Part shown: piece by piece, positions 1-46,420 of the stretch
Position numbering within the stretch: the first letter of the stretch is position 1
How the letters are laid out: every line of letters starts with the position of its first letter
Virus record (IMG/VR): IMGVR_UViG_3300009702_000003
Span: 1 to 46,543 of that record
Reading direction: 5' to 3' (one strand)
From: a virus
Length of the DNA stretch: 46,543 bases
The notes under the pieces: generated by a model
Databases searched by the model: none
The model's input: only the letters and a program-made list of their open reading frames with translations
Told to the model about the DNA's origin: nothing
Program-made: the position numbers and the translations under genes

Positions 1-123
1 AGGACTAAACCGTGCTACTGCACTTTCTTTTGACTTCTTTTCCAGCCAACTTCAGCTATATCTGTCATGCTACGCATGACTAAACTGCTGGAAAGTCTGT
101 CCCTTGACAGCTACTAAAAAAGG
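1..123. repeat. Terminal direct repeat, left copy
   Basis: Nt 1..123 (AGGACTAAACCGTGCTACTG...CTACTAAAAAAGG) recur base-for-base as nt 46421..46543. This indicates a complete genome, either with a true DTR or as a circular-assembly overlap. Confidence 0.9.
38..95 (+). repeat. Nested inverted repeats inside the terminal repeat
   Basis: TTTCCAGC (39..46) pairs with GCTGGAAA (87..94) and encloses a perfect GTCATGC-TAC-GCATGAC hairpin (64..80). The same element is present at 46458..46515. Confidence 0.6.
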
Positions 124-137
124 CAGTGAGGTCGGGG

Positions 138-302
138 ATGCGACACACAGAAAACCAGAAAGCACGGAGGCACGGAACACCGCCAAGACACGCCCGGCAG
201 GCCACCAACAGGACCGCTCAAGCGCTGGAACTCAAACGCCAGTGTGTGCAGATCAAGAAGCACAGTCTGAACAACGTCAGTCGCCAACAGGCGCAGCCGT
301 AA
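138..302 (+). CDS. Candidate small Arg/Lys/Gln-rich ORF (54 aa), below the ORF-track cutoff
   Basis: ATG at 138 is preceded by GAGG 6 nt upstream, and the TAA stop is at 300..302. Translation: MRHTENQKARRHGTPPRHARQATNRTAQALELKRQCVQIKKHSLNNVSRQQAQP. Composition is low-complexity, so coding status is uncertain. Confidence 0.25.
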   Translation: MRHTENQKARRHGTPPRHARQATNRTAQALELKRQCVQIKKHSLNNVSRQQAQP

Positions 303-345
303 CAACACGAGAAACCTTGCAAACACACCCAAGGAGATACAGCAC

Positions 346-861
346 ATGATCATTACAGGAATCGGACACAGCGTGAATTTACTCCCGGGTAGTTTCTACG
401 TCCGGGAAGACATGAGACGAATAAAGCACCTCTGCCAGATCCTTAACGGACTCAAGCCGAGCTTGATCCGCACAGACGCCAGTCTGGGTTTTGGCCACAA
501 CCTACTCGAAGCAGCAATCAGCCTAGACATACCCTATGAACTGTACGTACCCCCAGCACTGCCAGATAGCAGACCCGCCAACCATTGGTCAAACCTTAGA
601 GAATGCTTCATCGACTCACTCAAAGACCAAGCAACCTCAATCGTTGAAGCCCCAACACTCAACAAAGACGCCACACCAAGAGACGTCAGAGAGGCAATCC
701 ACAAGCAGAATGAGACAATGGTCTGCGGCGCAGACCTGCTAGTCACCCTCTGGAACATCAAAAACCGCTTGTGGTCCCGAACAGGCGATGCAATAGAGCA
801 CGCCAAAAGTCTGGGTATCCCCTGGGTCAACCTCTGGGATACGCTCTACGCAGTAATCTAG
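346..861 (+). CDS. SLOG-superfamily protein, YpsA/DUF1273-like
   Basis: AAGGAG lies 8 nt upstream of the ATG. The blocks MIITGIGH, TDASLGFGHNLLEAAISL, P..ANHW and QNETMVCGADLLVTLW...GDAIEHAKSLGIPWVNLWD occur in the same order as the DUF1273/YpsA pattern (ITG..., G.LG.D.WAAE, PF..W, RN.fmv..aD.ll.vyd...G). Confidence 0.6.
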   Translation: MIITGIGHSVNLLPGSFYVREDMRRIKHLCQILNGLKPSLIRTDASLGFGHNLLEAAISLDIPYELYVPPALPDSRPANHWSNLRECFIDSLKDQATSIVEAPTLNKDATPRDVREAIHKQNETMVCGADLLVTLWNIKNRLWSRTGDAIEHAKSLGIPWVNLWDTLYAVI

Positions 862-935
862 CGCAACACAGCCAAAGCGTGGTCCGTCGCGATATGTTGG
901 ACGACGGACCACGCACCTACATCGGAGTACAACCA

Positions 936-1223
936 ATGCCCAAGCAAAGCAAGCGAGGCAAGAGCAGCGACACCAGGCCGGCCCGCAAACGCTATTGGCA
1001 TCAGCAGCACCTTGTACGGAACAAGGTCCGCGCCATGATGAGACAGCGTGTATACGTCCGCCTCAGTGACGGATCCATCCAACTCGGCATTATCCCGCCA
1101 ACGAGTGAAGACGACCTCAACACATACTACAAGCCAGTTACCGAAGCGAGGTACAAGACAATCCAAGAGGCGCGGAAGGCTTGGCTCGCAGCCCGCAAGC
1201 GCAACCGTGACCAGATCGCCTAG
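936..1223 (+). CDS. Hypothetical basic protein (95 aa)
   Basis: GGAG lies 8-9 nt upstream of the ATG at 936, and there is an in-frame alternative ATG at 894. The N-terminus is very basic (KQSKRGKSSDTRPARKRYWHQQH). No family recognised. Confidence 0.55.
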   Translation: MPKQSKRGKSSDTRPARKRYWHQQHLVRNKVRAMMRQRVYVRLSDGSIQLGIIPPTSEDDLNTYYKPVTEARYKTIQEARKAWLAARKRNRDQIA

Positions 1224-1227
1224 CACA

Positions 1228-1689
1228 ATGACAGACGACATACTGCTAGCATACGAAGAGCTAGCAACCGAGCACAGCATCGCCAGAGTGGACCCGAGCG
1301 ATTACGCCCGAATGTCAACTGCCATTATCTGCCCAGACTGCTACAAGGAGTTACAGCCCGAGCCAGACCGCGAGAATGAATGGTCCTGTCCCTGTGGTGC
1401 TACCACATGGACACCAGAGTACCTCGTGATCCTCAGTGAGCACTACGCAACACACTACACCAGGACCAGCCAGGACACACGCACACGCCCGCCATACGAC
1501 GGGTACACCTATGGCACAGATCCAACACTCGACCCACCAACCAGGGAGACATGGCCCAACGCAGCAGCAGTCACACTAACGTCCCATGAGTCTATGCTTT
1601 GCCTCTTTCACTTGAGTGTAGAGCAGCCTCAAACACTGTCCTGGTACGACCAGACAGCACGACAACTACTCAGCAACATTCTCGGGTAA
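1228..1689 (+). CDS. Hypothetical zinc-ribbon-like protein
   Basis: The ATG lies 4 nt after the previous stop. There is a Cys4 arrangement, ICPDCYKEL...EWSCPCGAT. The upstream part of ORF 1048..1689 overlaps the previous gene. Confidence 0.6.
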   Translation: MTDDILLAYEELATEHSIARVDPSDYARMSTAIICPDCYKELQPEPDRENEWSCPCGATTWTPEYLVILSEHYATHYTRTSQDTRTRPPYDGYTYGTDPTLDPPTRETWPNAAAVTLTSHESMLCLFHLSVEQPQTLSWYDQTARQLLSNILG

Positions 1690-1707
1690 CACAAGGAGAC
1701 GCAGACA

Positions 1708-2181
1708 ATGGCAAAGAAGAACACGACGCCCAAGCTGGAGATGCCTCCCGCCGACACAAACTTGGTCATCATGGTAGGCCAAGTCAGCAAAACCGGAATC
1801 AAGGTACGCAACACAAGCTCCGGAGACCGCAAGGTTGCAAGCTTCAGCGTATACACTCGAAGCCATGGCCGGCAGGCGCTAAGCCCATTCGGGGCTTGCG
1901 TGTCACCGTCCGATGCCTTCGAAACCATCAAGAAGCACGGGCTCAAGGAAGGAGACAAGGTCCTAGTAATTGGCAGCTTGCGAACTCGTAGGGTCGGGCA
2001 GCCCGGAGCGTACAAGTACTACGACAACTTGTACATCAATCTCGTCCTGCCCCTGTCCACGCCGGCGGCCACGATGCAGGCTTGGGCCGAGTACAACCAG
2101 AGCGACGTAACCGACATGGCAACCGACGTATTCAGCGTCAGTCGCCTCGTAACCTCACTCATCAACAACGAAGCCAGCTAG
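1708..2181 (+). CDS. SSB-like OB-fold protein (putative ssDNA-binding)
   Basis: AAGGAG is upstream. The pattern NLVIMVGQVSK...GDRKVASFSV...LKEGDKVLVIGSLRTRR matches the SSB OB-fold strand pattern. There is no acidic C-terminal tip. Confidence 0.5.
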   Translation: MAKKNTTPKLEMPPADTNLVIMVGQVSKTGIKVRNTSSGDRKVASFSVYTRSHGRQALSPFGACVSPSDAFETIKKHGLKEGDKVLVIGSLRTRRVGQPGAYKYYDNLYINLVLPLSTPAATMQAWAEYNQSDVTDMATDVFSVSRLVTSLINNEAS

Positions 2182-2198
2182 CTCCGGCTCAGGAAATA

Positions 2199-2243
2199 GG
2201 CCCGTGCTCAGCCAGAAAGACCGGTTGGGCACGGGCCTTTTTC
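2199..2243 (+). terminator. Rho-independent terminator ending the first (G+C-rich) operon
   Basis: GGCCCGTGC (2199..2207) pairs with GCACGGGCC (2229..2237) and is followed by TTTTTCT. It starts 18 nt after the stop at 2181. Confidence 0.75.
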
Positions 2244-2282
2244 TATGCACGCCCACTTTGTATTGCAAAGTAAAAAAATTTT

Positions 2283-2326
2283 CCAGGCTGGCGCCTGGAC
2301 TTTCTTTGACAGGCTTCGCCTGACAG
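2283..2326 (+). promoter_or_regulatory. Two CAGGC..GCCTG hairpins/palindromes in the leader of the second operon
   Basis: The elements are CCAGGC-TGGC-GCCTGG (2283..2298) and TGACAGGC-TTC-GCCTGACAG (2307..2326). The second is a shorter relative of the 22-nt units at 46233..46289. Confidence 0.55.
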
Positions 2327-2333
2327 TGTTTCT

Positions 2334-2362
2334 TTTACATGGAACTATCTTGCTGCTAACAA
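2334..2362 (+). promoter_or_regulatory. Weak sigma70-like promoter candidate
   Basis: TTTACA-N17-TAACAA with TGC immediately before the -10, the same spacer ending as the stronger promoters in this genome. The -10 is poor because it lacks the final T. Confidence 0.25.
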
Positions 2363-2552
2363 CCTTTTGTAGTGGGGCAGGACAGAAAGGACAAGAGAAG
2401 TGCTTTCGAGACCTGTAGCTAGGGTAGGCAGAAGGGGCAGCACAGCAGCTTTCAGGGCCTATAACTACCCGACAGCAGAAACAATACTGCGATCGAACAG
2501 CTTCTAGAGTCCGGATGAGCCCTGCCCGGGGAAGTACAAGGATGGTGTCCAA

Positions 2553-3131
2553 ATGCTGAAACAACTCTTCTTTCTAGTAGTTACTGTACTAGGCATTCTA
2601 CTTACAATGACCTTAGTACAAAACCAACACTATGTCCAAGCATCACTAATGTACATAGGAACGCTTCTAGTACTTTTCCTCACAGCCATATCCTTGACAG
2701 ACAACAGGAAAGGACAAAACTTCATTGCAAAAAGACTCCTCAGATACAAAAATAGATACAAAAAATGGAGACTAACCTACATGAAAATATTAGTTTGTGG
2801 CGGAAGAAACTTCATGGACATAACTCTTATGAATAAAGTGCTTAGAGAATACCCAATTGGCACAATTATTGAAGGTGGTGCTAAAGGTGCTGACACCTTA
2901 GCCTACCTCTGGGGTAATAAACATGATGTAGAAGTCATAACTTATCCACCAGAATGGAACAAATATGGTAAAGCAGCCGGTCCTATCAGAAACCAGACCA
3001 TGCTGGACCAAGAATCACCAGATTTGGTAATTGCCTTTCCTGGCGGAAGGGGCACAGAAGACATGATAGCAAGAGCCAAGAAAGCAAATATTCCAACACG
3101 AGTTGTTAAACTCGAAGAGAAGGAAGACTAA
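2553..3131 (+). CDS. DUF2493 (SLOG-superfamily) protein with N-terminal two-TM extension
   Basis: The C-terminal 117 aa (MKILVCGGRNF...IIEGGAKGADTLA...WNKYGKAAGPIRNQTML...DLVIAFPGGRGTEDMIARAKKANIP) match the DUF2493 signature closely. The in-frame N-terminal 76 aa contain two hydrophobic helices followed by a basic stretch. An internal start at 2781 (GGAG upstream) is also possible. Confidence 0.85.
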   Translation: MLKQLFFLVVTVLGILLTMTLVQNQHYVQASLMYIGTLLVLFLTAISLTDNRKGQNFIAKRLLRYKNRYKKWRLTYMKILVCGGRNFMDITLMNKVLREYPIGTIIEGGAKGADTLAYLWGNKHDVEVITYPPEWNKYGKAAGPIRNQTMLDQESPDLVIAFPGGRGTEDMIARAKKANIPTRVVKLEEKED

Positions 3132-3535
3132 TGCAAAAGCAGAGAGGGAATGAAATCAGCTTAAGTACATTTCTCAGGCTACTAGAAAGAGTAAAAGATA
3201 GCTACACCTGGGAGGACGAGGATGGTGCCATTCGAGGCAGACGAGGCACTACAGTAGTATGCCCAATCACCGCTGTAGCAAACAGTGTTACAGACAGACA
3301 CTTCAGTCTAGTCTACACTATGGATGCAGCCCTTTCACTTTCCCCAAACAGTAGAGAGGGAATCAAAGATCTACATGATCTAGTTGCTGCATCCGACCCA
3401 GAACATGAGGTTCTGGATACAAACAGTTCTGGAATCAGATGGGAGGTCAAGAAAAGAACCAAAGCACAAAAGATTATAAGAGAACTTCTACTAAAAACAC
3501 TAGGCTTACAGCTAGTGAGAAAGGAAATGCAATAA
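3131..3535 (+). CDS. Hypothetical protein (134 aa)
   Basis: TAATG overlap with the upstream gene. Clean ORF in the operon frame pattern. No family recognised. Confidence 0.7.
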   Translation: MQKQRGNEISLSTFLRLLERVKDSYTWEDEDGAIRGRRGTTVVCPITAVANSVTDRHFSLVYTMDAALSLSPNSREGIKDLHDLVAASDPEHEVLDTNSSGIRWEVKKRTKAQKIIRELLLKTLGLQLVRKEMQ

Positions 3536-3888
3536 TGAGCACCACAAATACAAAAGAATCCCTGCAACACTGGATCAGAGTAGTACAAGAACTCAACAGA
3601 AACCTAGACAGAATTGAAAAGAGTTGCACCAAGATCCTAAATAACAAACCAGATGATCCAGAAATCAACCTACTAGTTTACTACATCAAAAGTCTGGGAA
3701 GATCAGCAGTAATTGGAGACATCACAGCTGCATGTGCACTCCACCAACTCAGTACAGAACAAGAAGACACATACGGCTCAGAGCACACCTTTGTACCCAC
3801 TGAACTGAAAGACATTATGGAGTACCTGGAAGAAGAATACAAGGATCTGGACACTATTAATACTATACTTAACGAATTTGGAGACTAA
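3535..3888 (+). CDS. Hypothetical acidic protein (117 aa)
   Basis: The ATG at 3535 shares its A with the upstream TAA. The upstream part of ORF 3439..3888 overlaps the previous gene. Confidence 0.65.
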   Translation: MSTTNTKESLQHWIRVVQELNRNLDRIEKSCTKILNNKPDDPEINLLVYYIKSLGRSAVIGDITAACALHQLSTEQEDTYGSEHTFVPTELKDIMEYLEEEYKDLDTINTILNEFGD

Positions 3889-4393: not shown

Positions 4394-5767
4394 ATGCCTG
4401 TAAAGCTAATACAGCTTAATAAGAAAGAAACAAAAGAGGAGCCAGCAAAGTATACTCTTGACCAATCAAGCACAACTATGGGGTCTTCAAACAGTACAAG
4501 TAAAATAAAGACAGCAAAGAAAATTGAGGCACCAGCATTCAAAGCAAAGTATGATGGACATTGCATAAAAAAGGACTGCAGATTAGGTGGTAAAATAAAA
4601 CCCGGAGATGATATCACTTGGGTTAGAAGAGGACCACACAAGGGTGGGTACTACCATAAGAAATGTGCAGACTTACCTTTTGAAGACAAAGAGGACAACC
4701 AGGAAAAAGAAGAAAAGGAAAAGAAGAATACACAAGCAAAGAAAAAGTCAGCTAAGAAAACACAGCCTAACATAGCTAAAGAAGAAATACAGGAGCTAGT
4801 TCAAGATCAGACTGACCCCTTAAATGAAAAGCTAAAGAACCTTAGTAAGCAACTAGAGTCACTGCAGAATAAGCTAGGCAAGGCTATGCAGGTTACCAGG
4901 ACTCTAGAAATTTCCAACCAAGCTGACAAGCAAGTAAAACAGTTTAAGGAACTGCACCACTTCCAGTTTCCACAACTGCTTAAACTAATCAGCTTGGGAT
5001 TTCAGGTATACATCTGGGGTGGGCCTGGAAGTGGCAAGACTACCGCTGCAATGCAAGTAGCAAAGGTTAGAAAGCAACCCTTTGGCCTACTTAGCCTCAA
5101 CCCTATGTCACCTGCCAGTAAACTAGAGGGGTATGGTACTGCAGATGGGACATACATTCCAAGTATTGCCTACAAGATGTATTCTAGTGAAGGCAAGGGT
5201 GGTCTACTTTGCATAGATGAGTTTGATAATGCAAATGGTGCCTTGCTTACTAGCTTCAATTCAGCCTTAGCAAATGGGGTGGGATCCTGGCCTCTAGGGA
5301 TCATTACAGAACAACATAAAGACTTTGCTCTAGTAACTACAGGAAATACACCTGGCTTTGGGGGAACACCTGCACATCCAGACAGACGCAAGCTAGATAG
5401 TGCTACCAGAGACCGCTTTGTAGTCTTGGACTGGGAATATGACAAGGATCTGGAAAGAGCATTAGCTTTGCAAGAGTGTGAAGAAGCAGAGCCTTGGATT
5501 ACATGGTGCCAGACCACAAGAAAGTGGGCAGAAGAGAATGCACCTAGAGTCATGGTAACTCCAAGATCCTGTATATTCGGAGCAAGGCTACTCAAGAACA
5601 CAGACTTGCCCATGAATGAGATCTATAAACTAACTGTAGCTAGAGGAATCACAGAAGACTACAGAACTAAGACCCTAAAGAACTGTCCATTACCAAAGCT
5701 ACAGGGTCTTGGTAAGCCAACAGAAACAAGAACAGAACTGGTACCTCAAGAAAAGACTAAGCCATGA
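4394..5767 (+). CDS. AAA+ ATPase, AAA_5 (MoxR/CobS-like) with Lys/Glu-rich N-terminal region
   Basis: Walker A is YIWGGPGSGKTTAA and Walker B is GLLCIDEFDNA. The downstream blocks FALVTTGNTP and SATRDRFVVL follow the AAA_5 order. The N-terminal region carries an H-C-x4-C...H-x2-C cluster. Confidence 0.8.
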   Translation: MPVKLIQLNKKETKEEPAKYTLDQSSTTMGSSNSTSKIKTAKKIEAPAFKAKYDGHCIKKDCRLGGKIKPGDDITWVRRGPHKGGYYHKKCADLPFEDKEDNQEKEEKEKKNTQAKKKSAKKTQPNIAKEEIQELVQDQTDPLNEKLKNLSKQLESLQNKLGKAMQVTRTLEISNQADKQVKQFKELHHFQFPQLLKLISLGFQVYIWGGPGSGKTTAAMQVAKVRKQPFGLLSLNPMSPASKLEGYGTADGTYIPSIAYKMYSSEGKGGLLCIDEFDNANGALLTSFNSALANGVGSWPLGIITEQHKDFALVTTGNTPGFGGTPAHPDRRKLDSATRDRFVVLDWEYDKDLERALALQECEEAEPWITWCQTTRKWAEENAPRVMVTPRSCIFGARLLKNTDLPMNEIYKLTVARGITEDYRTKTLKNCPLPKLQGLGKPTETRTELVPQEKTKP

Positions 5768-6732
5768 TCTTAGAAAAAGAACCAGGACACTACAAACAAA
5801 TGTTCCAAACATGGGGAGAATACGTAGAATATGCAAAACAAGCCAAGGCAACGCAATGGGACAAAAGTAACATAATTGAAACAAAGAAACGACATAGTAG
5901 AAGAAAACGTGATGGAAGTACATTTAAACATACTACAGAAGTCTTAGCTATACAAGGGTGGCCAGAAGGAAGCAAGTATGCAGATGTATATGGGTCCTGG
6001 CTGTTTGACAAATGCTCTAGTATCATAGAAAGAGAAGACTACTTCTTTGAAGTAACAGGTGCTGATATAGACATGGCAGCATACACAACAGGCATTCCAG
6101 AGTGTTTCATAGAACAAAGAATGACATGTGTAGAAGAAGAAGGACAGAAGATCTTCCACCTAATCTTTGGAAATGGAGCTACTTCAGGAGTTAGTACCCA
6201 GATGGTAGCAAAAAGAGGAGCAGTTGTAGTAGCATTAATACAGTTACTAGAGTATGCAGGATACAGCATGGTTGTAGATCTCATGTCTAGTACACGTAAC
6301 TTTAAACAAGACAGACAAGACTACTCACAAGGAGACAATAATCCACTCTGGTTACCTAGAGGTACTAAACTACATTCCTCTGATAGGCATCACACAGGCT
6401 GGCACCCACATGTAGAAACCTGGGTTCCATTAAAAAGAGCTGGGGAACCTATAGACACAGACAGACTACTCTTTGCCCTAGCCCACAGAGGTAGCTTTGC
6501 ACAAATAGCCTTTGCAATCTGGGAAGCACTGCCACAATGGCTTGGGAAAGAATGTCGCTTTGGTGTTAATACAAATTGTGGAGCACCAATAAAAGTTAAA
6601 GAATGGTCAACTAGAGGAGACTTAAACTTCCCAGAAGCTACACACTTTGACTCTACCTGGAAGTCAGACGAAGATGCCATTAAATGGATTCTAGACCACT
6701 TAAAGAGAGCAGGACTTAAAGTCCGTGCATAA
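5764..6732 (+). CDS. Partner of the AAA+ ATPase, possibly a vWA-like fold with a degenerate MIDAS
   Basis: An ATGA overlap links it to the AAA+ gene. The segment IFHLIFGNGATSGVSTQMVAKRGAVVVALIQLLEYAGYSMVV resembles vWA beta1-MIDAS loop-alpha1-beta2, but DxSxS is replaced by GNGATS. The fold call is weak. Confidence 0.45.
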   Translation: MILEKEPGHYKQMFQTWGEYVEYAKQAKATQWDKSNIIETKKRHSRRKRDGSTFKHTTEVLAIQGWPEGSKYADVYGSWLFDKCSSIIEREDYFFEVTGADIDMAAYTTGIPECFIEQRMTCVEEEGQKIFHLIFGNGATSGVSTQMVAKRGAVVVALIQLLEYAGYSMVVDLMSSTRNFKQDRQDYSQGDNNPLWLPRGTKLHSSDRHHTGWHPHVETWVPLKRAGEPIDTDRLLFALAHRGSFAQIAFAIWEALPQWLGKECRFGVNTNCGAPIKVKEWSTRGDLNFPEATHFDSTWKSDEDAIKWILDHLKRAGLKVRA

Positions 6733-6795: not shown

Positions 6796-7206
6796 ATGAT
6801 TTCAGAAATTAATGTTCCACAAACCTTGCATGGTATTGCAAGAACACTACACCTGAACAACCCCCTAGTTGCTATGTCAAAGAAGGCTTTGCAGAAGAGG
6901 TCAAAGTACTGGCAACATGTGGCAGAAGAGGTATGTAGACGAGACTTTGACACTACCAAGCTTCTGTACAAAACTAGAAGGAAGTTAAGAGCTGTCAGAA
7001 AGGCACAACGAGACCTGCAGCAAGCATATCTAAGAAATGATAGACTCCTTAGAAAGCTAAGGGGAGACCTAGAAATTGAAAGAATGAGAACCGAGGACTT
7101 AAGAGACAGGCTAGACACTGCAATGGCAGAAGCAGACTACTATGCAGACGCACACCAATATAGATACAAGGACAACGCAGAGAAGGTTACTAATGCCCAA
7201 AATTAA
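6796..7206 (+). CDS. Hypothetical basic coiled-coil protein
   Basis: AAGGA is upstream. The sequence has Arg/Lys-rich heptad-like stretches (RKLRAVRKAQRDLQQAYLRNDRLLRKLRGDLEIERMR). Confidence 0.7.
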   Translation: MISEINVPQTLHGIARTLHLNNPLVAMSKKALQKRSKYWQHVAEEVCRRDFDTTKLLYKTRRKLRAVRKAQRDLQQAYLRNDRLLRKLRGDLEIERMRTEDLRDRLDTAMAEADYYADAHQYRYKDNAEKVTNAQN

Positions 7207-7363
7207 GCTACTAAAACATTTAACAGATGGCATAGCTTTCATGATAGTAATACCTCTCTTTGTTCTAGCAGGTCTTTTAGAAATAAGCTACAAAATCTTC
7301 CAGTCCTTGTTCTTAACAGTACTGTTTCTTACTAGATTTGTCAGACAAATCTTTAGGACTTGA
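7193..7363 (+). CDS. Small membrane protein (56 aa)
   Basis: The ATG at 7193 overlaps the end of the upstream gene by 14 nt. There are two hydrophobic segments (IAFMIVIPLFVLAGLL, IFQSLFLTVLFL). Confidence 0.45.
   Translation: MPKIKLLKHLTDGIAFMIVIPLFVLAGLLEISYKIFQSLFLTVLFLTRFVRQIFRT
7334..7352. repeat. Perfect 19-bp palindrome AGATTTGTC-A-GACAAATCT
   Basis: Seen directly. It lies at the 3-prime end of the small membrane ORF and is followed by TTT. It could be a weak terminator or a protein-binding site. Confidence 0.4.
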
Positions 7364-10126: not shown

Positions 10127-10324
10127 ATGCAGACCTTAAGTGAAAAGATAGAAAATGCAATTGGTAACACACTTTTCAATGCAGATCTAGAAAGAGCACC
10201 GATTGCTTACCTATCTAAAGTCCTAACTCAAACCGTACTAGAGGTCATACGTAATGAACTCAGCAGCTATAACCCCACCAGTAGAACAGTGCAAGGAATG
10301 CACAAAAAGACAGGAACAGTATAA
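10127..10324 (+). CDS. Hypothetical small protein (65 aa)
   Basis: The start lies 2 nt after the upstream stop. The 3-prime 71 nt overlap the polymerase ORF. Confidence 0.45.
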   Translation: MQTLSEKIENAIGNTLFNADLERAPIAYLSKVLTQTVLEVIRNELSSYNPTSRTVQGMHKKTGTV

Positions 10325-12845
10325 CTACAAATATGTCTACGGTGAAAATTTAAAGCTTAAAAGGACATTCCTGTTTGTTGGAGAAGCACCTGGGAGGGTA
10401 GAAAATGAACAGGGCAAAGTCTTTGTTGGTAAGTCAGGACAACTATTGCGAGATTCACTTGCAAACCTAAACTTTCCAAAGAATCAATGTGCTTTTACTA
10501 ATGCAGTACACGTTAGACCAGATGAGTACAACTCAACCCCAAGCTTTTCCTGGGGCCAGGATTGCCTAAACATCTGTAAACCTAAGCTACTAGATATTGT
10601 AGACCCAGCTCTTATCATTTGTTTGGGTAATACAGCCTGGAAACAATTCACACGAAATAGCTCTGCATCTGTCTTTAAAGACAGGCGCAGAGTTTTGTCT
10701 TACAAGCATACTTATGCCCCAGATTCAGCAGGTAGAGTATACACAAGAGAAATACCAATTGTCTGCACTTGGCATCCTGCCTACATTCTAAGAATGGAAG
10801 GAAGAGAAAAAGAGTGGTGGGAAGCAGACTTAGATTCTTACGTCTTAGGAGAATGGGACAGAAGGGAATTAGTACCTAACCTAACTGTTAGAAAGATCTT
10901 TCCAAAAGAGTTGAACAAATCTACTTACTTCTGCTTGGACGTAGAAACAACAGGACTACACCCGTGGCGAGGAGATACCCTACGATGTGTTGGTATTACA
11001 GGTAATCCTACGTACCACACCAATGAATCACAGAGAGTGTATGTAATTAAAGATGAGAAAGGCTTTGCAGCTATACAAAGGAAAGTCTACAAGAAACCAA
11101 AAGACCCTGGTGAGATTTTATACATAGAAGGAGCTAATACACATTTTGACCTAATGTGGTTTCTAAAGCCAGGTAAATTTCCTTACTGCAGAACAAGAGA
11201 CATTCAGTTCAAGCACTATCTAGTTGATGAGGAGTATCCTATCAGGAGATTAGACCACTTAGCATTACTGTACACACCATACAAAGAGTGGAAGCTTCCT
11301 GAACATGGTGCAAATGAAACAAACCTTGCAAAACTATACGAGTACAACGCCAGAGATGTTCTACAAACACAACTAATTAGCAAGGAAATAGGGGCACAAG
11401 AGACAATAGATATTGCACAAGCAGAACCAGTAAGTAAGGTCATGGAAAGAGTACAGCCAATCCTAGCTGCTATGACCAGAACAGTAATTATGGTAGATCC
11501 TGCAGAATTACAGGGAGTAGATGAAGCTTGCAAAGAAATTATAGCAACCAAGCTATGGTCTCTTAATCTAATTCACTTAAACTATGCTACAATTACTACA
11601 AAGACTAATGCAGGTGGAACATTTTCTGGAATAGCACCAGGCAAGATTACTGAAAAATGCCTGAACACACCTACCAGAGTAAGCAAGATCATCTTCCAAG
11701 ATTTGTATGCAATACCTCCAGAAGGTAACCAGTACCTAATGAAGTCAGGTTTACCTAGAACTGATACCAAAACATTACGAGCTACAAACGATACAACAGG
11801 CTTTGTTATTGAGCTAGAAAAGTACAAGAGGGAAAGAGACAACTACAGGAAATATGTAACGAACCTGTATGATTACATTGACCAAGACCCAGATTGGGGA
11901 GAACAATTATCAGATGATCCTGTCTGGACTATGCACCCAACTGTAAACATTGCAAGTGGTTGGACTAGTAGATCTAAGTCTAAAACAGGAGGAACTACAT
12001 CATCGAGGTTCAGTTACAAAAACCCACCACTGCATAACATCCCAAGAGGACACCCAATCAGACGAATATTCATCCCGCACAAACAAGCAGGACATAGATA
12101 TCTTGCTCAAACAGATATGAAACAAGCAGAGCTAAGATGCCTTGCACAGGAGAGCAAAGACCCCCAGTTAATTGAAGCAATCAAAATTCATGAAGACTTA
12201 CACTTATCTCTGGCTGATAAACTACAAGAACAGGGAATACACTTAGGAACAGATCCAAGAAATGTTGCAAAGACAATCAACTTTGCAATCTTGTATGGTG
12301 TAAGCGCAAAGGGTTTAGCAGACCAAACACCTTTGTCAGTAGATGAGGCAAAGCTAGCAATTAAGTTGTGGTTTGAGAGATTCAAACGAGTTAAGTTCTT
12401 GTGGTATAAAACACGACAGGATATACTTAACCGAGGTTACGTCCAGACTAGTTTTGGACTAAAGAGAAGATTCAGAACAGGACTTAACAAGTTTGATCCA
12501 ATTCTATTCAAGTCACAAAGACAGGGATTTAATCACCTGTTCCAATCTGCTGCTCACCAAATCAATCTTCTAATCCTCTTAGCAATACAAGATGCTACTA
12601 ATAACTTTAAGCACCACTGGCCACTAGGTCTGATTCATGATGCTATTCTCTTCTCAACACCAGATGCAGAAGATTTGAAAGGTAGGATACAGCTTGCTTA
12701 TGATATCCTAGGAGAGAATTACCTACCTGACTTCTTTGGACAGGACATGATAATACCTATTGAGGGTGACTACAAATCAGGCCCTAATTGGTATGACATG
12801 GCAGGAGATAAAACTACATTTACAACCAAGAGTGTGACAAAGTAG
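10254..12845 (+). CDS. polA: Family A DNA polymerase with 3-5 exonuclease and an N-terminal family-4 UDG-like domain
   Basis: UDG domain: CKEC, GEAPGRVENEQGKVFVGKSGQLL and WHPAYILR. Exonuclease: FCLDVETTGL, NTHFDLMW and YNARDV. Polymerase: DMKQAELRCLA (motif A), RNVAKTINFAILYG (motif B) and LIHDAILF (motif C). Confidence 0.93.
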   Translation: MNSAAITPPVEQCKECTKRQEQYNYKYVYGENLKLKRTFLFVGEAPGRVENEQGKVFVGKSGQLLRDSLANLNFPKNQCAFTNAVHVRPDEYNSTPSFSWGQDCLNICKPKLLDIVDPALIICLGNTAWKQFTRNSSASVFKDRRRVLSYKHTYAPDSAGRVYTREIPIVCTWHPAYILRMEGREKEWWEADLDSYVLGEWDRRELVPNLTVRKIFPKELNKSTYFCLDVETTGLHPWRGDTLRCVGITGNPTYHTNESQRVYVIKDEKGFAAIQRKVYKKPKDPGEILYIEGANTHFDLMWFLKPGKFPYCRTRDIQFKHYLVDEEYPIRRLDHLALLYTPYKEWKLPEHGANETNLAKLYEYNARDVLQTQLISKEIGAQETIDIAQAEPVSKVMERVQPILAAMTRTVIMVDPAELQGVDEACKEIIATKLWSLNLIHLNYATITTKTNAGGTFSGIAPGKITEKCLNTPTRVSKIIFQDLYAIPPEGNQYLMKSGLPRTDTKTLRATNDTTGFVIELEKYKRERDNYRKYVTNLYDYIDQDPDWGEQLSDDPVWTMHPTVNIASGWTSRSKSKTGGTTSSRFSYKNPPLHNIPRGHPIRRIFIPHKQAGHRYLAQTDMKQAELRCLAQESKDPQLIEAIKIHEDLHLSLADKLQEQGIHLGTDPRNVAKTINFAILYGVSAKGLADQTPLSVDEAKLAIKLWFERFKRVKFLWYKTRQDILNRGYVQTSFGLKRRFRTGLNKFDPILFKSQRQGFNHLFQSAAHQINLLILLAIQDATNNFKHHWPLGLIHDAILFSTPDAEDLKGRIQLAYDILGENYLPDFFGQDMIIPIEGDYKSGPNWYDMAGDKTTFTTKSVTK

Positions 12846-15114: not shown

Positions 15115-15564
15115 ATGAAACAAAATGAAAGGCCAGAACGTGTTATCTTCTTAGGTGTTACAGGGGTTCTACACACTGACAGATCATACCAAAAGAGAGA
15201 AAGATCAGGAATTATAAAACCCAAATTAGTAAACTTACTGGACGAGCTAGTTACAAGAACAGGAGCTAAGATAGTCTTAACATCTTTTTGGCGGAACTCA
15301 GATATGCTAATCAACACTCTAAAGTCTGCAGGAGTACAAATTGATGACATGATTGGTGTAAGGTTCAATACACTAATTAGAACTAAACAAGACTGGATAT
15401 TGGAGTGGCTGTACGTACACCCAGGCACAACATGCCCTGTGGTTCTAGATGCAAATATAATCAGTAAGCCAGAATATCCATACCAAGTAGTACATGTAGA
15501 CAAAAATGTAGGACTAACCCAGGAAAACATAGAAGAAGCAGAACAACTACTAACAAATGAGTAG
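15115..15564 (+). CDS. HAD-like (HAD_SAK-type) protein with a degenerate catalytic motif
   Basis: VIFLGVTGVL...KIVLTSFWR...DWILEWL...VVLDAN...GLTQENIEEAEQLL follows the pattern of the small phage HAD family (IFLDIDGVL...IVLSSSWR...WL...ILDD...GLT). The DxD nucleophile position reads GVT. Confidence 0.55.
   Translation: MKQNERPERVIFLGVTGVLHTDRSYQKRERSGIIKPKLVNLLDELVTRTGAKIVLTSFWRNSDMLINTLKSAGVQIDDMIGVRFNTLIRTKQDWILEWLYVHPGTTCPVVLDANIISKPEYPYQVVHVDKNVGLTQENIEEAEQLLTNE
15545..15564 (+). repeat. 20-nt gene-boundary direct repeat, copy 1 (AACTACTAACAAATGAGTAG)
   Basis: Identical 20-mer at 15795..15814. It encodes the C-terminal LLTNE* of the upstream gene and contains the ATG of the next gene. 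Confidence 0.9.
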
Positions 15565-15820: not shown

Positions 15821-16165
15821 ATGACAACTGATAGGGAAAGAGCATGGGAGGAATTTCATACTATTGTCTGTCCAATAAATGAAAGCATTGCAGGCAACTA
15901 TACAGACCAAAATGATCTATCAGTTTGGATTACTAAGCCTCTAACGCCAGTAGAAATAGATAAGAAAATCCTAGCTGCAGCTCAGAGAGCATTTGATTAC
16001 TACTACCCAAAGATTGCTAAACGCAATGCACAGATCGAAGAACGCGATGCCGAGATCCGCAGTCTGAAACAACCAAGGATCAAGATGATAAATAGCTATG
16101 AGTCAGACCTGCACAAACGTGATGCTATCATTGCTACTTTAAAGAAACTAAGGGTGAAGTCATGA
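15821..16165 (+). CDS. Hypothetical coiled-coil protein (114 aa)
   Basis: The ORF has a C-terminal heptad-like region (NAQIEERDAEIRSLK...). It ends in an ATGA overlap with the next gene. Confidence 0.65.
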   Translation: MTTDRERAWEEFHTIVCPINESIAGNYTDQNDLSVWITKPLTPVEIDKKILAAAQRAFDYYYPKIAKRNAQIEERDAEIRSLKQPRIKMINSYESDLHKRDAIIATLKKLRVKS

Positions 16166-17178
16166 GATTTAGAAAGAAACCAATTGTGATAGAAGCTATT
16201 CAGTGGACCGGTGGAAACTGGTCCGAGATAGACGGATTCACTCAAGGCTGGGCCAGGTTGTGTGTCAACAACGGGCTTGTTATTGACACGATCGGAGGCT
16301 CCCTCCACGTAGCCCCTGGAGACTGGATCGTTCGTGGGGTCGTTGGAGAGTTCTATCCGTGCAGTCCCGACATCTTCGATGCGACCTATGAACCTTGTGG
16401 CGGACCTGGAGGTGTAATCGTGAGTGAGCCCATTCTCGGCCATGGGGTAAACGATGGCGGTGAGTTCTACGAAGTAACCGAAGGCGACCAGGGTGGTCAG
16501 GGGGCAAGGCATTTGGACGACCCTGGTCAAGGAGCGGGCAGCGAGCCCCCGGCTGCCCCGCCTTCGGTTGAGTTGACCTCGGCCGGCGAGCGTCCAACCC
16601 TGGTTATTGCCGAGGACGACCTGAGCGTTAGCGCCTCGGACCACCTAGAGCTAGAGGCCAAGCTGCGGGAGACCGAAGCGGCTCTAGACACCATGACCTC
16701 GGAACGCAACGTGTGGCGAGAGTCACACGATGAAGCCTGCCCTAACCTGGGCGAGACAATCGACCTACGCGAGACGTTGGCCGAGCGTGATGCCGAGATT
16801 GAACGACTGCTGAAGGTGGAGAAGATCAAGCTCCAGCAACAGGCGCCGCAACGAGGGGTTCGCCACGGCGCTCAAAAGGCTGTCTGTGGACCCGGCGTGT
16901 CAAGCCGAGATCAACAGGCTAGAAGCCAAGATCGAGCGCCTACAGCACGATCTGGAGGAACAATGAATGCAGTAGTAGGTCGAGCAGTCACTTGCCGTGT
17001 TTGCGGGCTTAGGAAAAAGCCCTGGGGTCGCTCCGCACCGCTCGCGATGGCGAACAGCCTGTGCGACCGGGAGTGTCCGGGGTGGTTACTGCCTCCGCAT
17101 GCAGGAGACCTTTGGCCCGGCGAGACCGCCGAGGAATTTGGCTACCCCTGTGCTGGACCAGACTGCGAAGCAAACTAA
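16162..17178 (+). CDS. Composite G+C-rich ORF: small conserved phage N-domain, acidic/coiled-coil region, and an apparently frameshift-fused Cys-rich C-terminus
   Basis: The N-terminus (MRFRKKPIVIEAIQW...GDWIVRGVVGEFYPCSPDIFDATYEP) matches a small stand-alone phage protein family as I recall it. From about 16845 the residues look out-of-frame (APQRGVRHGAQKAVCGPGVSSRDQQARSQDRAPTARSGG), while the +1 frame reads a plausible coiled coil ending at the TGA at 16964..16966. Confidence 0.55.
   Translation: MRFRKKPIVIEAIQWTGGNWSEIDGFTQGWARLCVNNGLVIDTIGGSLHVAPGDWIVRGVVGEFYPCSPDIFDATYEPCGGPGGVIVSEPILGHGVNDGGEFYEVTEGDQGGQGARHLDDPGQGAGSEPPAAPPSVELTSAGERPTLVIAEDDLSVSASDHLELEAKLRETEAALDTMTSERNVWRESHDEACPNLGETIDLRETLAERDAEIERLLKVEKIKLQQQAPQRGVRHGAQKAVCGPGVSSRDQQARSQDRAPTARSGGTMNAVVGRAVTCRVCGLRKKPWGRSAPLAMANSLCDRECPGWLLPPHAGDLWPGETAEEFGYPCAGPDCEAN
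16963..17178 (+). CDS. Possible originally separate Cys-rich small gene (71 aa) now in frame with the upstream ORF
   Basis: The ATG at 16963 overlaps the TGA at 16964..16966 of the alternative frame, which is the classic ATGA gene junction. Translation: MNAVVGRAVTCRVCGLRKKPW...CDRECPGW...YPCAGPDCEAN. Confidence 0.4.
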   Translation: MNAVVGRAVTCRVCGLRKKPWGRSAPLAMANSLCDRECPGWLLPPHAGDLWPGETAEEFGYPCAGPDCEAN

Positions 17179-17450: not shown

Positions 17451-17471
17451 CCAATACAAAGGAATTATCAC

Positions 17472-20574: not shown

Positions 20575-20921
20575 CCTTGTGGGTCATCCTCTGGGAAGTG
20601 ATCTTCTGGGTGTGTACTAAAATGTCTGACAAAAGCTGTGACCCACCACTTGTCAGACTCTCTAAACTGGTTCGTAATAGTCTCGCCCTGCTCACCCCAG
20701 AATATTTCCTGTAGCTTCACATCTACCATGTACAAGAATGTCAGTACACCTTCTGCCCAGGACCACTTCTTAGGTAACTTCCCAGTCCACCTACCATGCC
20801 AAGGCACTGTCATCCACCGGGTTATGCCGATCAAGGGCATGATAAGAAATAGTTCTATTCTATTACCTAGCCCCCGTACTCTCTTCTGTCCAGGAAATGG
20901 TTGTCTAAAAGTGCTCTTCAT
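20571..20921 (-). CDS. Hypothetical Trp-rich protein (116 aa), last gene of the late arm
   Basis: The ORF overlaps the upstream peptidase gene by 17 nt. No family recognised. Confidence 0.55.
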   Translation of the reverse strand: MKSTFRQPFPGQKRVRGLGNRIELFLIMPLIGITRWMTVPWHGRWTGKLPKKWSWAEGVLTFLYMVDVKLQEIFWGEQGETITNQFRESDKWWVTAFVRHFSTHPEDHFPEDDPQG

Positions 20922-21426
20922 GCTTAAGCCAATCCTTGTAGTATTTCGTGCCCAAGTAATGCAGGCTTAGGTTTTCTACCAGTTGCTCAGAATGCACTTT
21001 GCCTATTGGTGTACAGTAAGCTATAAACCAATGAAATAGCTCATGAGCAACGGTCCTGTCTGTAATGTTTTGAGCAAACAGGTTTATGACCAAATTGTCT
21101 CTGTCTTTCAACTCACTATATGCCCAAACGATTATGCCATCCCCTCGCAAGGAAAATGCCTCCCGACTTGCGGGGGGAAGTGTTCTTAGCACTTTGTCCT
21201 GAAACTCTTTGTACCGGTATATCTCCAAACTAATCTTATCTGGTCCGGAACAAGACATGTCAGGATGTGCAAAGAACAGGGTTATGAATTTAGTCAGCCT
21301 GGTAGTGTCTACAGCAGTTTCATGCTGCTTAACCTGGAACTCAATTGCCTTCTCTGGAGCTTGTACAAACCCCAAAGTCGGCATGAGTATTGCCATTAGC
21401 ACTACCAGAACTAACTTTTTCAACAT
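20905..21426 (-). CDS. Secreted zinc-metallopeptidase-like protein (HExxH)
   Basis: The ATG at 21426 is preceded by AGGAG 9 nt upstream. It has a signal-peptide-like N-terminus (MLKKLVLVVLMAILMPTLGFVQA) and the motif VAHELFHW. The listed start at 21453 overlaps the hydrolase gene. Confidence 0.6.
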   Translation of the reverse strand: MLKKLVLVVLMAILMPTLGFVQAPEKAIEFQVKQHETAVDTTRLTKFITLFFAHPDMSCSGPDKISLEIYRYKEFQDKVLRTLPPASREAFSLRGDGIIVWAYSELKDRDNLVINLFAQNITDRTVAHELFHWFIAYCTPIGKVHSEQLVENLSLHYLGTKYYKDWLKHEEHF

Positions 21427-21430
21427 TGTC

Positions 21431-21874
21431 TTAGTCTCCTGGACCTGCCTCATAGTAAAATGTGTGATTACCCCAGGTTCCTCTAAATCTCATGTTAGAA
21501 GAATCTGCCCAATCTGGGTTAGCTTGTCGTATATTTAGGTAGTGTGTAGCTCCAAGAGTGGGGTCAGGAACGACGTCGAGTAAAGCACCTAGCCCTACAT
21601 ATAGGGACTTCAAAAATACAGGGTCTGTGAGGTTCAGATCTTGTATCTTCATCCTGTTTGGGTCATTCTCATTCCATACAGAGAATTGCTTTTTCTCCAT
21701 GCAAACCTTTGCTAAGCTGTCTGGCCATCTTGGGTCTTTTATCCTGTTAAGTATAACATGGGCTACTGCAGCTTGGCCAAGCTCTGGTTCTCCTCTTGCT
21801 TCTCCATATATAGTTTTAGAGTAAACAAGTAGGTCCCAGAAAGTTAGCTTAATCAGTAAGGCTAGAATGTGCAT
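21431..21874 (-). CDS. SleB-type cell-wall hydrolase (Hydrolase_2 family), probable endolysin
   Basis: YGEARGEP...AVAHVILNR...FSVWN...GATHY match the SleB/CwlJ catalytic-domain signature. The N-terminus is hydrophobic (MHILALLIKLTFWDLLVY). Confidence 0.85.
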   Translation of the reverse strand: MHILALLIKLTFWDLLVYSKTIYGEARGEPELGQAAVAHVILNRIKDPRWPDSLAKVCMEKKQFSVWNENDPNRMKIQDLNLTDPVFLKSLYVGLGALLDVVPDPTLGATHYLNIRQANPDWADSSNMRFRGTWGNHTFYYEAGPGD

Positions 21875-21884
21875 AACACATCTC

Positions 21885-22151
21885 CTAAAGAACTGTTAGG
21901 GTGTAGAGTACAATACCAAACAGGAGTGTAACTAGAGCAGACCATACTGTACGTTCAAACCAGGTATACCTTTTCAGAATATGTTCTAGTTTGCTCACTC
22001 GTGTTGTAAGGCCCTCCTGTCCATTTCCACGCAGGAGGGCCTTTATCTCATGCATCTCTTCTTTCTGGTTTGCAAAGTATTCCTTAGCTAAGATACAGTG
22101 GTCTCGTAACTCTGTCTGTAATACTGCTATAGACACCTTAGTCTCTTCCAC
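21885..22151 (-). CDS. Coiled-coil protein with a C-terminal TM helix (holin/spanin-like candidate)
   Basis: The C-terminal TM is VWSALVTLLFGIVLYTLTVL. It lies immediately upstream of the hydrolase gene. Confidence 0.45.
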   Translation of the reverse strand: MEETKVSIAVLQTELRDHCILAKEYFANQKEEMHEIKALLRGNGQEGLTTRVSKLEHILKRYTWFERTVWSALVTLLFGIVLYTLTVL

Positions 22152-22153
22152 TG

Positions 22154-35449: not shown

Positions 35450-36643
35450 CTATGCCACCTTCCACCCGTAGATGGTCACGACGCCGGAGGAGATCGTGCC
35501 CGATGACACGACGAGCACGACGCTTGTGAGCGGCCCCGTTACAGACGTTGCCCGGCCAACAATCGAGCCTCCCTTGGGGTCTAGCGTCGTGGCCTCGATG
35601 TATGTTCCAAATCCCCTGGTCATGAAGTTGGTCTGATTCTCAAGCCACAGTGTCCACGCGCCACCCTCTACGTTCGATCCCATGTTCGATGCAAGCTCGA
35701 TGTAGGTGCCCGCGTTGGATGCCGAGCCCTGATACGTGGCTGTGGACGAGTCGTTGTCGCCGTGGTGGTAGTGGTAGTTATTATTGGAGGAGCCGTTGTA
35801 TTGGATGCCTACGGCAACGCCGTTCGTCCCAACCTTGAGCTTCTCGATCAGCACGACCAGCGTGTCGTATCCAGTAGTCGTTACGTTCAGGGTCGTGCCG
35901 GGCGTGGTCGTGGTTGCGATCTGCTTCAAGACACCGCTACCACCGAGTAGGGTCTCTACTCCCGCGCTGTCGAGCAGGGCAAGTTTCGTCGTGCCGGCGT
36001 CATCCTTGGCGTACACACGCCCTACGTTCACCCCAGGATTTGCGGGTGTCGCGATCTCGTCCAGGTCGTAGTAGCTGCTCTTGAGCACATTCTCCGGAGA
36101 GACGAACTCGTAGCCTGTTACTCCGCTGTTGAGTCGAACAAGCTGCAACCCGGTGCCCACAGGGAGCCTCCCGAACTGGGAAGCCCCAGAGGCATAGACA
36201 AAATCAAGTGCTGCCTGGGATGCAATAGCTATCCCACCTGACTCTACAGCAGCTATTCTAGCATCTACAGTAGCAGAAGAACCAGAAGGACTAATACCTA
36301 GTTCTGACTCTATGTTAGCAACTTCTTGTACTAGCTGATCTTGTACCTTACCTGTTGGCACTGCTACAACATTGTCTCCATCATTATGTGCTGCAGCAGT
36401 ACCTGCCCAACCTCTAGTACAACCTGTAAAGGTAGTGCTTGTAGTACCCGTGTAGTATATCTGTTCACCACCAATGACAATAGTTCCATTAGTACTTGCA
36501 AAACCTGTGGTTGAGGCAACAGTTATGGTAGTTACAACAGAGGTATGTGCACCTGTTAGGGTTGTTCTCTGGTCTATTCCATCCCCCACTCTTGGTAGGT
36601 CTGCATCAGTTACCAGAGCTGTTGGGTATTTAACAGTAGCCAT
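35450..36643 (-). CDS. Tail fibre/spike protein with a compositionally foreign C-terminal domain
   Basis: The N-terminal block IVIGGEQIYYTG...FTGCTRGWAGTAAAHNDGDNV is a common fibre/spike anchor motif. G+C jumps at about 36200, and the C-terminal part (about 250 aa) is G+C-rich. Confidence 0.65.
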   Translation of the reverse strand: MATVKYPTALVTDADLPRVGDGIDQRTTLTGAHTSVVTTITVASTTGFASTNGTIVIGGEQIYYTGTTSTTFTGCTRGWAGTAAAHNDGDNVVAVPTGKVQDQLVQEVANIESELGISPSGSSATVDARIAAVESGGIAIASQAALDFVYASGASQFGRLPVGTGLQLVRLNSGVTGYEFVSPENVLKSSYYDLDEIATPANPGVNVGRVYAKDDAGTTKLALLDSAGVETLLGGSGVLKQIATTTTPGTTLNVTTTGYDTLVVLIEKLKVGTNGVAVGIQYNGSSNNNYHYHHGDNDSSTATYQGSASNAGTYIELASNMGSNVEGGAWTLWLENQTNFMTRGFGTYIEATTLDPKGGSIVGRATSVTGPLTSVVLVVSSGTISSGVVTIYGWKVA

Positions 36644-46415: not shown

Positions 46416-46420
46416 GTCCA

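Follow-up and report, generated by a model that had tools for sequence, protein, structure and literature searches.

A putative membrane-anchored YAcAr protein and a separately encoded, divergent YpsA-like protein in the genome of a novel tailed phage

Within the virus record IMGVR_UViG_3300009702_000003 of IMG/VR, whose entire stretch of 46,543 nucleotides was analyzed (hereafter the window), we studied two genes at the beginning of the plus-strand arm: open reading frame (ORF) 1 at 346..861 and ORF2 at 2553..3131, both on the + strand. The best overall explanation of our computational results is that both genes belong to two different accessory units and that ORF2 would encode a membrane-anchored binder or hydrolase of a signal molecule. 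We assign a probability of roughly one half to this reading. As read, the ORF2 product comprises 192 amino acids and consists of a hairpin of two hydrophobic helices, a basic linker and a C-terminal YAcAr (DUF2493) domain, while its stop codon shares a base with the start codon of the following gene (ATG at 3131). Both SLOG domains as such are commonplace, and their proposed function had been published before. Judged by sequence, the putative membrane anchor on the YAcAr domain is the sole new element and is seen in a single genome.

The C-terminal part of ORF2 (2781..3131, + strand, 116 amino acids) carries the motifs VCGGR, GGAKGAD, GKAAGPIRN and FPGGRGT, by which an earlier note on this DNA had assigned it to DUF2493. 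This assignment was borne out: residues 77-138 match PF10686 over profile positions 1-66 of 66 (E=5e-17, 61.9 bits vs a cut-off of 28.2), the protein matches phrog_289 (E=2.8e-27), and ORF2 retains the expected residue in each of the 23 columns that are invariant among 54 aligned sequences. The domain was modelled by AlphaFold (AF2) with a predicted local distance difference test score (pLDDT) of ~98, and BFVD yielded structural matches to viral YAcAr proteins, giant viruses included, with E-values down to 1.9e-12. A fold search against PDB delivered generic Rossmann folds only, and no YAcAr structure appears to have been solved so far. A weak match to the CARF domain of Cam1 (8t64_B, E=6.6e-4, template modelling score (TM-score) 0.40) reflects generic Rossmann-fold similarity. 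Homologues were detected in 1557 of 50,697 phage records, and a protein search with ORF2 gave more than 7700 proteins at E<=1e-3. From a sequence perspective, the C-terminal part of ORF2 is a canonical YAcAr domain, a type that ranks with the most frequent accessory domains found as single proteins in phages. Stand-alone representatives such as gp52 of Klebsiella phage KpV52, the protein of Vibrio phage KVP40 and the gp61-like protein of mycobacteriophage D29 share with ORF2 44-63% identity over its C-terminal 116 residues, all invariant motifs, the same predicted fold and an accessory, replication-side context. In contrast to ORF2 with its 76-residue two-helix extension, such proteins are soluble and comprise 109-130 residues, a length that is restored in ORF2 if its start lies at 2781.

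Upstream of 2781, 91 codons are free of stops, and the last 76 of them follow from ATG 2553, the first start codon in frame. Using Kyte-Doolittle hydropathy in 19-residue windows, we found a first hydrophobic helix at 2562..2618 (+ strand; residues 4-22, QLFFLVVTVLGILLTMTLV; hydropathy 2.40; AF2 helix 2-23) and a second one at 2637..2696 (+ strand; residues 29-48; hydropathy 2.08, peaking at residues 30-48; AF2 helix 25-50), separated by the neutral six-residue loop NQHYVQ. They are followed by a basic linker helix at 2697..2780 (+ strand; residues 49-76, TDNRKGQNFIAKRLLRYKNRYKKWRLTY; AF2 helix 52-73), in which 10 K/R fall within 27 residues. Thus, hydropathy, charge and structure prediction agree with the earlier description of two hydrophobic helices plus a positively charged linker within these 76 codons. 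By the positive-inside rule, the basic linker points to an N-in/C-in topology, which would leave the SLOG domain in the cytoplasm.

Translation of this hydrophobic segment is very probable. In ~1.1% of shuffles of 2245-2780, 76 or more codons stayed open, and among 300,000 shuffles of 2553-2780 the frame stayed open in 1937 (0.65%), five of which contained one transmembrane-like window and none two. Across 2553-2696 the base composition is non-uniform by codon position (chi-square p=3.4e-5), with T at position 2 in 28 of the 48 codons; for the 306 nucleotides just upstream (2247-2552) it is uniform (p=0.82). Furthermore, a Shine-Dalgarno-like CAAGGA motif (2537..2542, + strand) is situated 10 nucleotides before ATG 2553, and CAAGGA(G) recurs ahead of many genes of this phage, while the downstream ATG 2607 and ATG 2649 lack a ribosome-binding site. 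Taken together, the open frame, the codon-position bias, the shuffles, the CAAGGA motif, the hydropathy and the AF2 helices argue for translation of the extension. Without it, a gene-free gap of 600 nucleotides would remain.

The earlier note had called this architecture unusual for the DUF2493 family, and our comparison supports this view. We tested the 261 nearest homologues for a transmembrane-like N-terminus (Kyte-Doolittle >=1.6), allowing the longest possible ORF in each case, and found none among the 119 best database homologues, the 72 IMG/VR loci and the 70 bacterial and archaeal loci. Based on this absence the anchor is considered new; since only nearest relatives were sampled, remoter branches of the family may contain YAcAr proteins with transmembrane segments. 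Apparent long tblastn matches that ran into the extension were obtained from Salmonella phage TR2, mycobacteriophage Jsquared, four IMG/VR loci and Alcanivorax loci, and were rejected as interrupted by stop codons or non-hydrophobic.

The extension was furthermore compared with known membrane modules. Profiles of Pfam SLATT_1 to SLATT_6 searched against residues 1-80 (E<=10) led to weak generic transmembrane families only, and the holin profiles of PHROG and Pfam did not match the extension. Two transmembrane helices next to a SLOG partner do correspond to the SLATT arrangement ('SMODS and SLOG-associating 2TM'); given the lack of a profile match, we regard this as a resemblance of design and rejected the assignment. 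Likewise, the shape is similar to that of a class II holin, but the phage possesses an endolysin (21431..21874) with transmembrane neighbors of its own, and this assignment was rejected as well. In combining a transmembrane module with a cytoplasm-facing, Rossmann-like nucleotide-binding domain, ORF2 resembles SLATT proteins, the transmembrane-Macro (TM-Macro) ThsA, ThsH and Cam1 of hosts. It differs from these defence effectors in being phage-encoded, in belonging to the YAcAr family and in its lack of a SLATT match, while the transmembrane domains of the host proteins are larger and conserved. ORF2 is also comparable to the phage SLOG fusions surveyed by Iyer et al. (2022; PMC9503650), in which a YpsA-clade SLOG is appended to another module: helix-turn-helix (HTH), HNH, exonuclease, superfamily 1 helicase (ICP1 HelB), guanylate kinase, Macro, NADAR or DUF4326. 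The survey interprets such fusions as sensor-regulated activities. In contrast to ORF2, the sections of that survey available to us contain neither a membrane-anchor fusion nor the word 'transmembrane' (PMC9503650).

The connection between hairpin and domain hangs on a single homopolymer base. The junction reads TAC AAA AAA TGG AGA CTA ACC TAC ATG, and a run of six A (A6, 2760-2765) is followed directly by the 10-mer TGGAGACTAA (2760..2775 in total, + strand). In the +1 frame the sequence AAA AAT GGA GAC TAA leads to a stop codon at 2773-2775. With five A (A5) instead of six, a gene for a 74-residue protein with two transmembrane helices would stop 5 nucleotides before a separate gene for a 116-residue YAcAr protein. 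At 3879-3888 the same TGGAGACTAA element forms a true gene junction, where its TAA is a real stop and its GGAG the Shine-Dalgarno sequence of the next gene. Since the A6 run and an out-of-frame TAA within this very element meet at the ORF2 junction, the anchor most likely arose recently, when a small two-transmembrane gene and a YAcAr gene were fused through read-through by one base. In total, the window holds four copies of TGGAGACTAA (at 2766, 3879 and 18164 on the + strand and at 30674 on the - strand) vs 0.30 expected; 0 of 100 shuffles reached four, and three of the four copies extend to GGAGACTAAC.

We consider the odds of a real tethered product to be slightly better than even. The membrane tether proposed in the earlier note stands in part: the hairpin is very probably coding, while its fusion to the domain is unproven. 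The alternative that competes most closely is that there is no tether. The YAcAr domain would then be made as a soluble protein of 116 residues from ATG 2781, and the hydrophobic part would be either a separate 74-residue two-transmembrane protein or an inconsequential leader; the true sequence would be A5, or A6 would represent a very recent or minority variant. We hold this to be possible, yet rather unlikely. Several findings favor it or weigh against the tethered product. The ancestral start and its Shine-Dalgarno sequence are intact (2767..2783, + strand), with GGAG at 2767-2770, a 10-nucleotide spacer and ATG 2781, from which MKILVCGGR is read. At the equivalent point homologues start with M[RK][VI]LVCGGR, and 261 of the 261 nearest ones begin there or nearby without a transmembrane extension. 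After A6, the +1 frame encodes KNGD-stop inside TGGAGACTAA, the element that ends one gene and serves the next at 3879-3888. In addition, the phage is a singleton, so that A6 is seen in one genome, and the two available assemblies may share reads. Gene callers disagree on the start: 192 amino acids were called in ENA, whereas the caller of the Joint Genome Institute (JGI) chose ATG 2649 instead of 2553 and thus 160 amino acids. The codon-usage likelihood of 2553-2780 is indecisive with -0.02 per codon, under the 5th percentile of real genes (0.13), though well in excess of the off-frame mean of -0.61; a codon model trained on soluble proteins probably fails on so hydrophobic a composition. Finally, no homologue of the extension was found, either by tblastn of the extension alone against the phage collection or in the metagenome scan, and no relative of the phage is available in which its conservation could be checked.

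On the other side, A6 is present in both assemblies, which were made with different pipelines and are identical over 2200-3140, and Illumina errors are rare in homopolymers of six bases. As the sequence stands, any ribosome initiating at 2553 has to continue into the domain. Moreover, the other two exact copies of TGGAGACTAA, apart from the two located just before start codons, lie inside genes; the motif is thus not only a junction signal, and its interpretation as a purely gene-junction signal is weakened. Given the retained GGAG and ATG 2781, internal initiation may yield the soluble 116-residue form in addition to the tethered one, or instead of it.

ORF1 (346..861, + strand) encodes 171 amino acids behind an AAGGAG ribosome-binding site 9 nucleotides upstream. 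Its earlier assignment to YpsA/DUF1273 holds as remote homology, but not as a direct Pfam match: PF06908 gave no direct match even at E<=10, the gathering score not being reached. Direct assignment by Pfam, NCBIfam and PHROG led to nothing but a chance match to Lipoprotein_6, phmmer against PDB sequences gave noise only, and a word-indexed search of 5.8 billion proteins retrieved only ORF1 itself. When 1.8 billion representative proteins were scanned in full by phmmer, 23 relatives emerged (E 1.6e-7 to 5e-4). PF06908 matches 17 of the 20 aligned family members, the DprA family PF02481 matches 10 of the 20 as well (best E=1.5e-7), and the family profile finds YpsA of B. subtilis (PDB 2nx2) with E=1.7e-11. 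By tblastn, ORF1 matches Sphingomonas phage Carli, whose protein passes PF06908 (31.7 bits vs 27.7). The AF2 model of ORF1 (pLDDT 88.9) has 2nx2 as its best PDB match in Foldseek (E=5.9e-7, TM-score 0.74/0.71), followed by the DprA-like antitoxin ShosA, DprA and a LOG-like protein. Profiles and model together indicate that ORF1 is a divergent YpsA-like SLOG protein at the remote-homology level. A comparison of the ORF1 and ORF2 families by hhalign (97.4%, E=1.3e-11, 95 aligned columns) places both in the SLOG superfamily, as had been supposed and as Pfam, family profiles and Foldseek confirm. The two proteins are not close paralogues.

ORF1 shares with YpsA (2nx2) and the phage clade of DUF1273 the fold and the motifs GxGH, PF..W and N.W. 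In contrast to this clade, it stays under Pfam detection, is only 22-33% identical to its nearest relatives and carries GFG (G48-F49-G50) in place of the GxD/E signature, which is GwD in the family and GvE in YpsA (...TDASLGFG... in ORF1 vs ...SGmaLGwD... in the family). Two further near-invariant family positions are changed, G44 to D and R121, the R of the RN motif, to Q. In YpsA, G53 and E55 belong to the GxD/E signature, which is said to bind substrate, and the exchange E55Q abolishes function (PMC6459960). Among the seven residues mutated in YpsA, alignments indicate that ORF1 keeps two, the equivalents of G53 and W87. A SLOG fold that lacks the acidic residue of the signature suggests that ORF1 is probably a non-catalytic or re-specified binder. 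The family itself is an ordinary phage accessory gene, since a typical member of the YpsA-like clade finds at least 280 of the 50,697 phage records.

Instead of handling a nucleotide signal, ORF1 might act like DprA as a mediator of single-stranded DNA binding or recombination, together with a protein resembling single-stranded DNA-binding protein (SSB) that is encoded further downstream (1708..2181). The PF02481 matches within the family, DprA and ShosA as next-best structural matches, the operon shared with the weak SSB match and the loss of the acidic GxD/E residue fit this idea, as does a homologue in Pectobacterium phage PP99 that is annotated as 'putative ssDNA binding protein'. However, YpsA is clearly the better match in both sequence and fold, the G-x-D motif missing from ORF1 is preserved in DprA, and the SSB match lies under the Pfam threshold. 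We consider a DprA-like role unlikely, though a fair competitor, and regard ORF1 as YpsA-like.

ORF1 heads a group of four + strand genes. It is followed by a gene for a very basic protein of 95 amino acids (936..1223) without Pfam or PHROG match, a gene for a zinc-ribbon-like protein of 153 amino acids (1228..1689) that carries a CPDC...CPCG motif and has no match in Pfam, PHROG or PADLOC, and finally the SSB-like gene (1708..2181). The latter encodes 157 amino acids with weak similarity to the OB-fold of SSB (PF00436, E=3.7e-4, under the gathering score), and tblastn against the phage collection delivered no match for it. All four genes have one common third-position base profile; for 936..1223 (C3 0.44, T3 0.11) it agrees with ORF1 and the SSB-like gene, whereas the antisense ORF 858..1280 does not. 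Positions 1-2200 comprise 53-56% G+C compared to ~42% for the genome, while the ORF2 unit comprises 37-42%. The group is closed by an intrinsic terminator (2193..2245, + strand) with 21-nucleotide arms (2193-2213 and 2223-2243), a perfect core of 16 base pairs and a subsequent UUUUUCU. The free energy of this region is -59.6 kcal/mol (z=-6.4; 0 of 200 shuffles were equally stable), and an inverted-repeat search concurs. The terminator scan had missed the hairpin at 2193-2243, which was recovered through folding and the repeat search. Based on the deviating G+C content, the common third-position profile and the closing terminator, 346-2245 appears to form a self-contained cassette of foreign composition that was probably acquired horizontally. 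G+C contrast and terminator likewise place ORF1 and ORF2 in two independent transcription units. Thus the two SLOG proteins, which the earlier note treated as a pair of paralogues, are not upheld as a functional pair or as close paralogues.

Both genes are located between a divergent non-coding junction and a conserved replication module. The junction (45489-46420 plus 1-345) comprises ~1.3 kb without a convincing ORF between the packaging genes of the - strand and ORF1. AT-rich direct repeats occur here (AAAATTCTAAA in three copies), along with 25-nucleotide repeats 170 nucleotides apart, inverted repeats and four weak sigma-70-like sites, the latter all on the - strand, and the region may represent an origin, a pac site or a regulatory region. 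A scan of 1..3300 for sigma-70-like promoters found none, and the description of both genes as first-expressed in the earlier note is not supported. In the ENA assembly, the genes for the large terminase and the portal protein are directly upstream of ORF1, across ~1.6 kb without genes. On the other side, an AAA_5 (MoxR-like) ATPase gene followed by a DUF7192 gene (4394-6732) forms a conserved two-gene module. In three distant phage contigs (L004, L005 and L006) this module heads the replication arm directly after the divergent junction, with 30-42% identity, and L006 encodes an Acb3-family protein as well. No SLOG gene was found at the module locus of these distant phages; both SLOG genes are thus part of a variable accessory stretch.

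A similar picture emerges from Jedunavirus. The Klebsiella phage KB2 encodes the YpsA-like gp27 as first gene after its divergent junction, as does our phage with ORF1, and lacks a YAcAr gene. In KpV52, the YAcAr gene gp52 is found beside the polymerase, while no YpsA-like gene is present in the syntenic 16 kb examined. At the slot of gp52, KB2 has an unrelated gene: its gp16, beside the polymerase, had been guessed to be a YAcAr protein, and this guess was wrong. YpsA-like and YAcAr genes are thus swappable accessory genes.

How might ORF2 function? According to the survey of Iyer et al., SLOG domains occur in 7% of small, 19% of medium and 31% of jumbo phages, mostly as stand-alone members of the YpsA-like clade (PMC9503650). 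This 2022 survey already predicts that viral SLOGs sense or degrade immune signals of the cyclic ADP-ribose (cADPR) type (PMC9503650). Hence the earlier statement that no function is described for such a pair in phages overlooks a published prediction. In type I Thoeris, the SLOG domain of ThsA binds 3'cADPR. Designs that join a sensor to transmembrane helices are present in host SLATT proteins, type II Thoeris (TM-Macro ThsA), type VII Thoeris, ThsH and Cam1. We propose that the main product of ORF2 would be a YAcAr domain that the N-in/C-in hairpin and the basic helix fix to the inner membrane on its cytoplasmic side, while the Shine-Dalgarno sequence and ATG 2781 may yield a soluble form in addition. 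By analogy to viral YpsA-clade SLOGs, the domain would bind or cleave an adenine-nucleotide or ADP-ribose-derived immune molecule of the host. The anchor would concentrate this activity where signal-activated effectors such as TM-Macro, SLATT and TM-CARF proteins are situated. Two points speak against this proposal: no experimental function, ligand, activity or phenotype was found in the literature for any phage YAcAr protein, and companion Macro, NADAR or Nudix genes were absent among the ~38 proteins scanned. PADLOC did not match any of eight early proteins, as expected for phage genes.

One might speculate that ORF2 is the first membrane-anchored SLOG protein of a phage, that its newly acquired hairpin lets it intercept immune signals of the ADPr or cyclic-nucleotide type at the membrane, the site of activation of transmembrane effectors, or convert their sensing into a permeability change under phage control, and that the A6/TAA junction documents the birth of this architecture. 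As a whole, we judge this wider scenario improbable. A related possibility is that ORF2 acts as ligand-gated membrane effector similar to SLATT proteins, Cam1 or TM-Macro ThsA. Once its SLOG domain had bound a nucleotide signal, the hairpin would oligomerize and permeabilize or depolarize the membrane, in the service of superinfection exclusion, lysis timing or host shut-off. Sensor-plus-transmembrane designs are established for host effectors (SLATT, type II and VII Thoeris, Cam1), and the weak structural similarity to the CARF domain of Cam1 points in the same direction. The hairpin with its highly basic tail also recalls the outline of a class II holin, a small protein with two transmembrane helices and a charged C-terminus. 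However, neither SLATT nor holin profiles match the extension even at E<=10, and SLATT domains are roughly twice as long as its 76 residues. The Cam1 match, with its TM-score of 0.40, is of generic Rossmann type. Furthermore, the lysis cassette is 18 kb away, and the gene is part of an early replication-side operon in a phage in which no lysogeny genes were found. A gated effector is consequently quite improbable and less probable than the membrane-anchored binder or hydrolase.

For ORF1, the earlier note had also envisioned an arrest of host division. YpsA, its best structural match, prevents FtsZ from assembling in B. subtilis and S. aureus when overproduced (PMC6459960). Such a role is very improbable for ORF1, in which five of the seven tested residues are lost, all but the equivalents of G53 and W87, and G replaces E55. 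Moreover, linkage of ypsA to gpsB is confined to Firmicutes, and the residues related to division are missing from the prophage paralogue YoqJ (PMC6459960).

Phage SLOG domains are abundant, yet without experimentally shown function, and they are currently predicted to sense immune signals derived from ADP-ribose or to destroy them. If the membrane-anchored form of ORF2 is real, it would suggest either that location matters for SLOG activity, or that phages build sensor-plus-pore proteins as host defence does. It would also offer a way into a hitherto intractable family by assays of localization, toxicity and ligand binding. Should the tether prove unreal, what is left is a novel phage with two accessory genes of an ordinary kind.

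The genome that carries both units is that of a tailed phage without close relative. Positions 1-123 and 46421-46543 of the window form an exact direct repeat of 123 base pairs, which indicates a circular assembly (or a direct terminal repeat) of ~46,420 base pairs; coordinate 1 is thus arbitrary. The ENA assembly (46,561 base pairs) is a circular permutation of the same genome. No match was obtained by megablast against the 50,697 phage records, identity of the large terminase to those of known phages does not exceed 30%, and the best homologue of the AAA_5 protein is 37% identical. Searches of IMG/VR with the AAA_5 protein and the large terminase revealed no relatives of the phage, and both JGI metagenome scans for relatives were empty. 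Genes of the + strand extend from ~346 to 20,400, followed by structural and lysis genes on the - strand (~20,500 to 45,500). Products of the + arm include a PD-(D/E)XK nuclease, a metallophosphatase, a fusion of uracil-DNA glycosylase (UDG) and PolA, a DnaB-type helicase, an HTH protein, a HAD protein and a dCMP deaminase. The proteins scanned included no integrase.

Among these genes, the ORF at 10254-12845 encodes a DNA polymerase A of 863 amino acids with an N-terminal domain of the UDG superfamily (PF03167, E=9e-23). A HAD domain of the 'Swiss Army Knife' RNA-repair type (PF18143, E=1.8e-15) is encoded at 15115-15564 and a dCMP/cytidine deaminase at 17382-17882. A tRNA-Ile with anticodon TAT (19996-20066), detected by ARAGORN, is the sole Rfam match (62.4 bits). 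The lysis cassette (20571-22453, - strand) comprises, besides the endolysin (phrog_938), an 88-residue protein with a C-terminal transmembrane helix (21885..22151) and a 182-residue protein with an N-terminal signal or transmembrane segment (20905..21453). An ORF of 73 amino acids at 7142-7363 on the + strand contains a strongly hydrophobic segment (Kyte-Doolittle 2.46) and could represent a further small membrane protein encoded in this early region. Besides positions 1-2200, two further islands exceed the ~42% G+C of the genome. The island at 16001-17000 (56%) overlaps the ORF 16162..17178, which at its N-terminus is matched by PHROGs of MazG-like pyrophosphohydrolases, and that at 35001-36000 (54%) overlaps the ORF 35450..36643, which suggests that both are further mosaic acquisitions.

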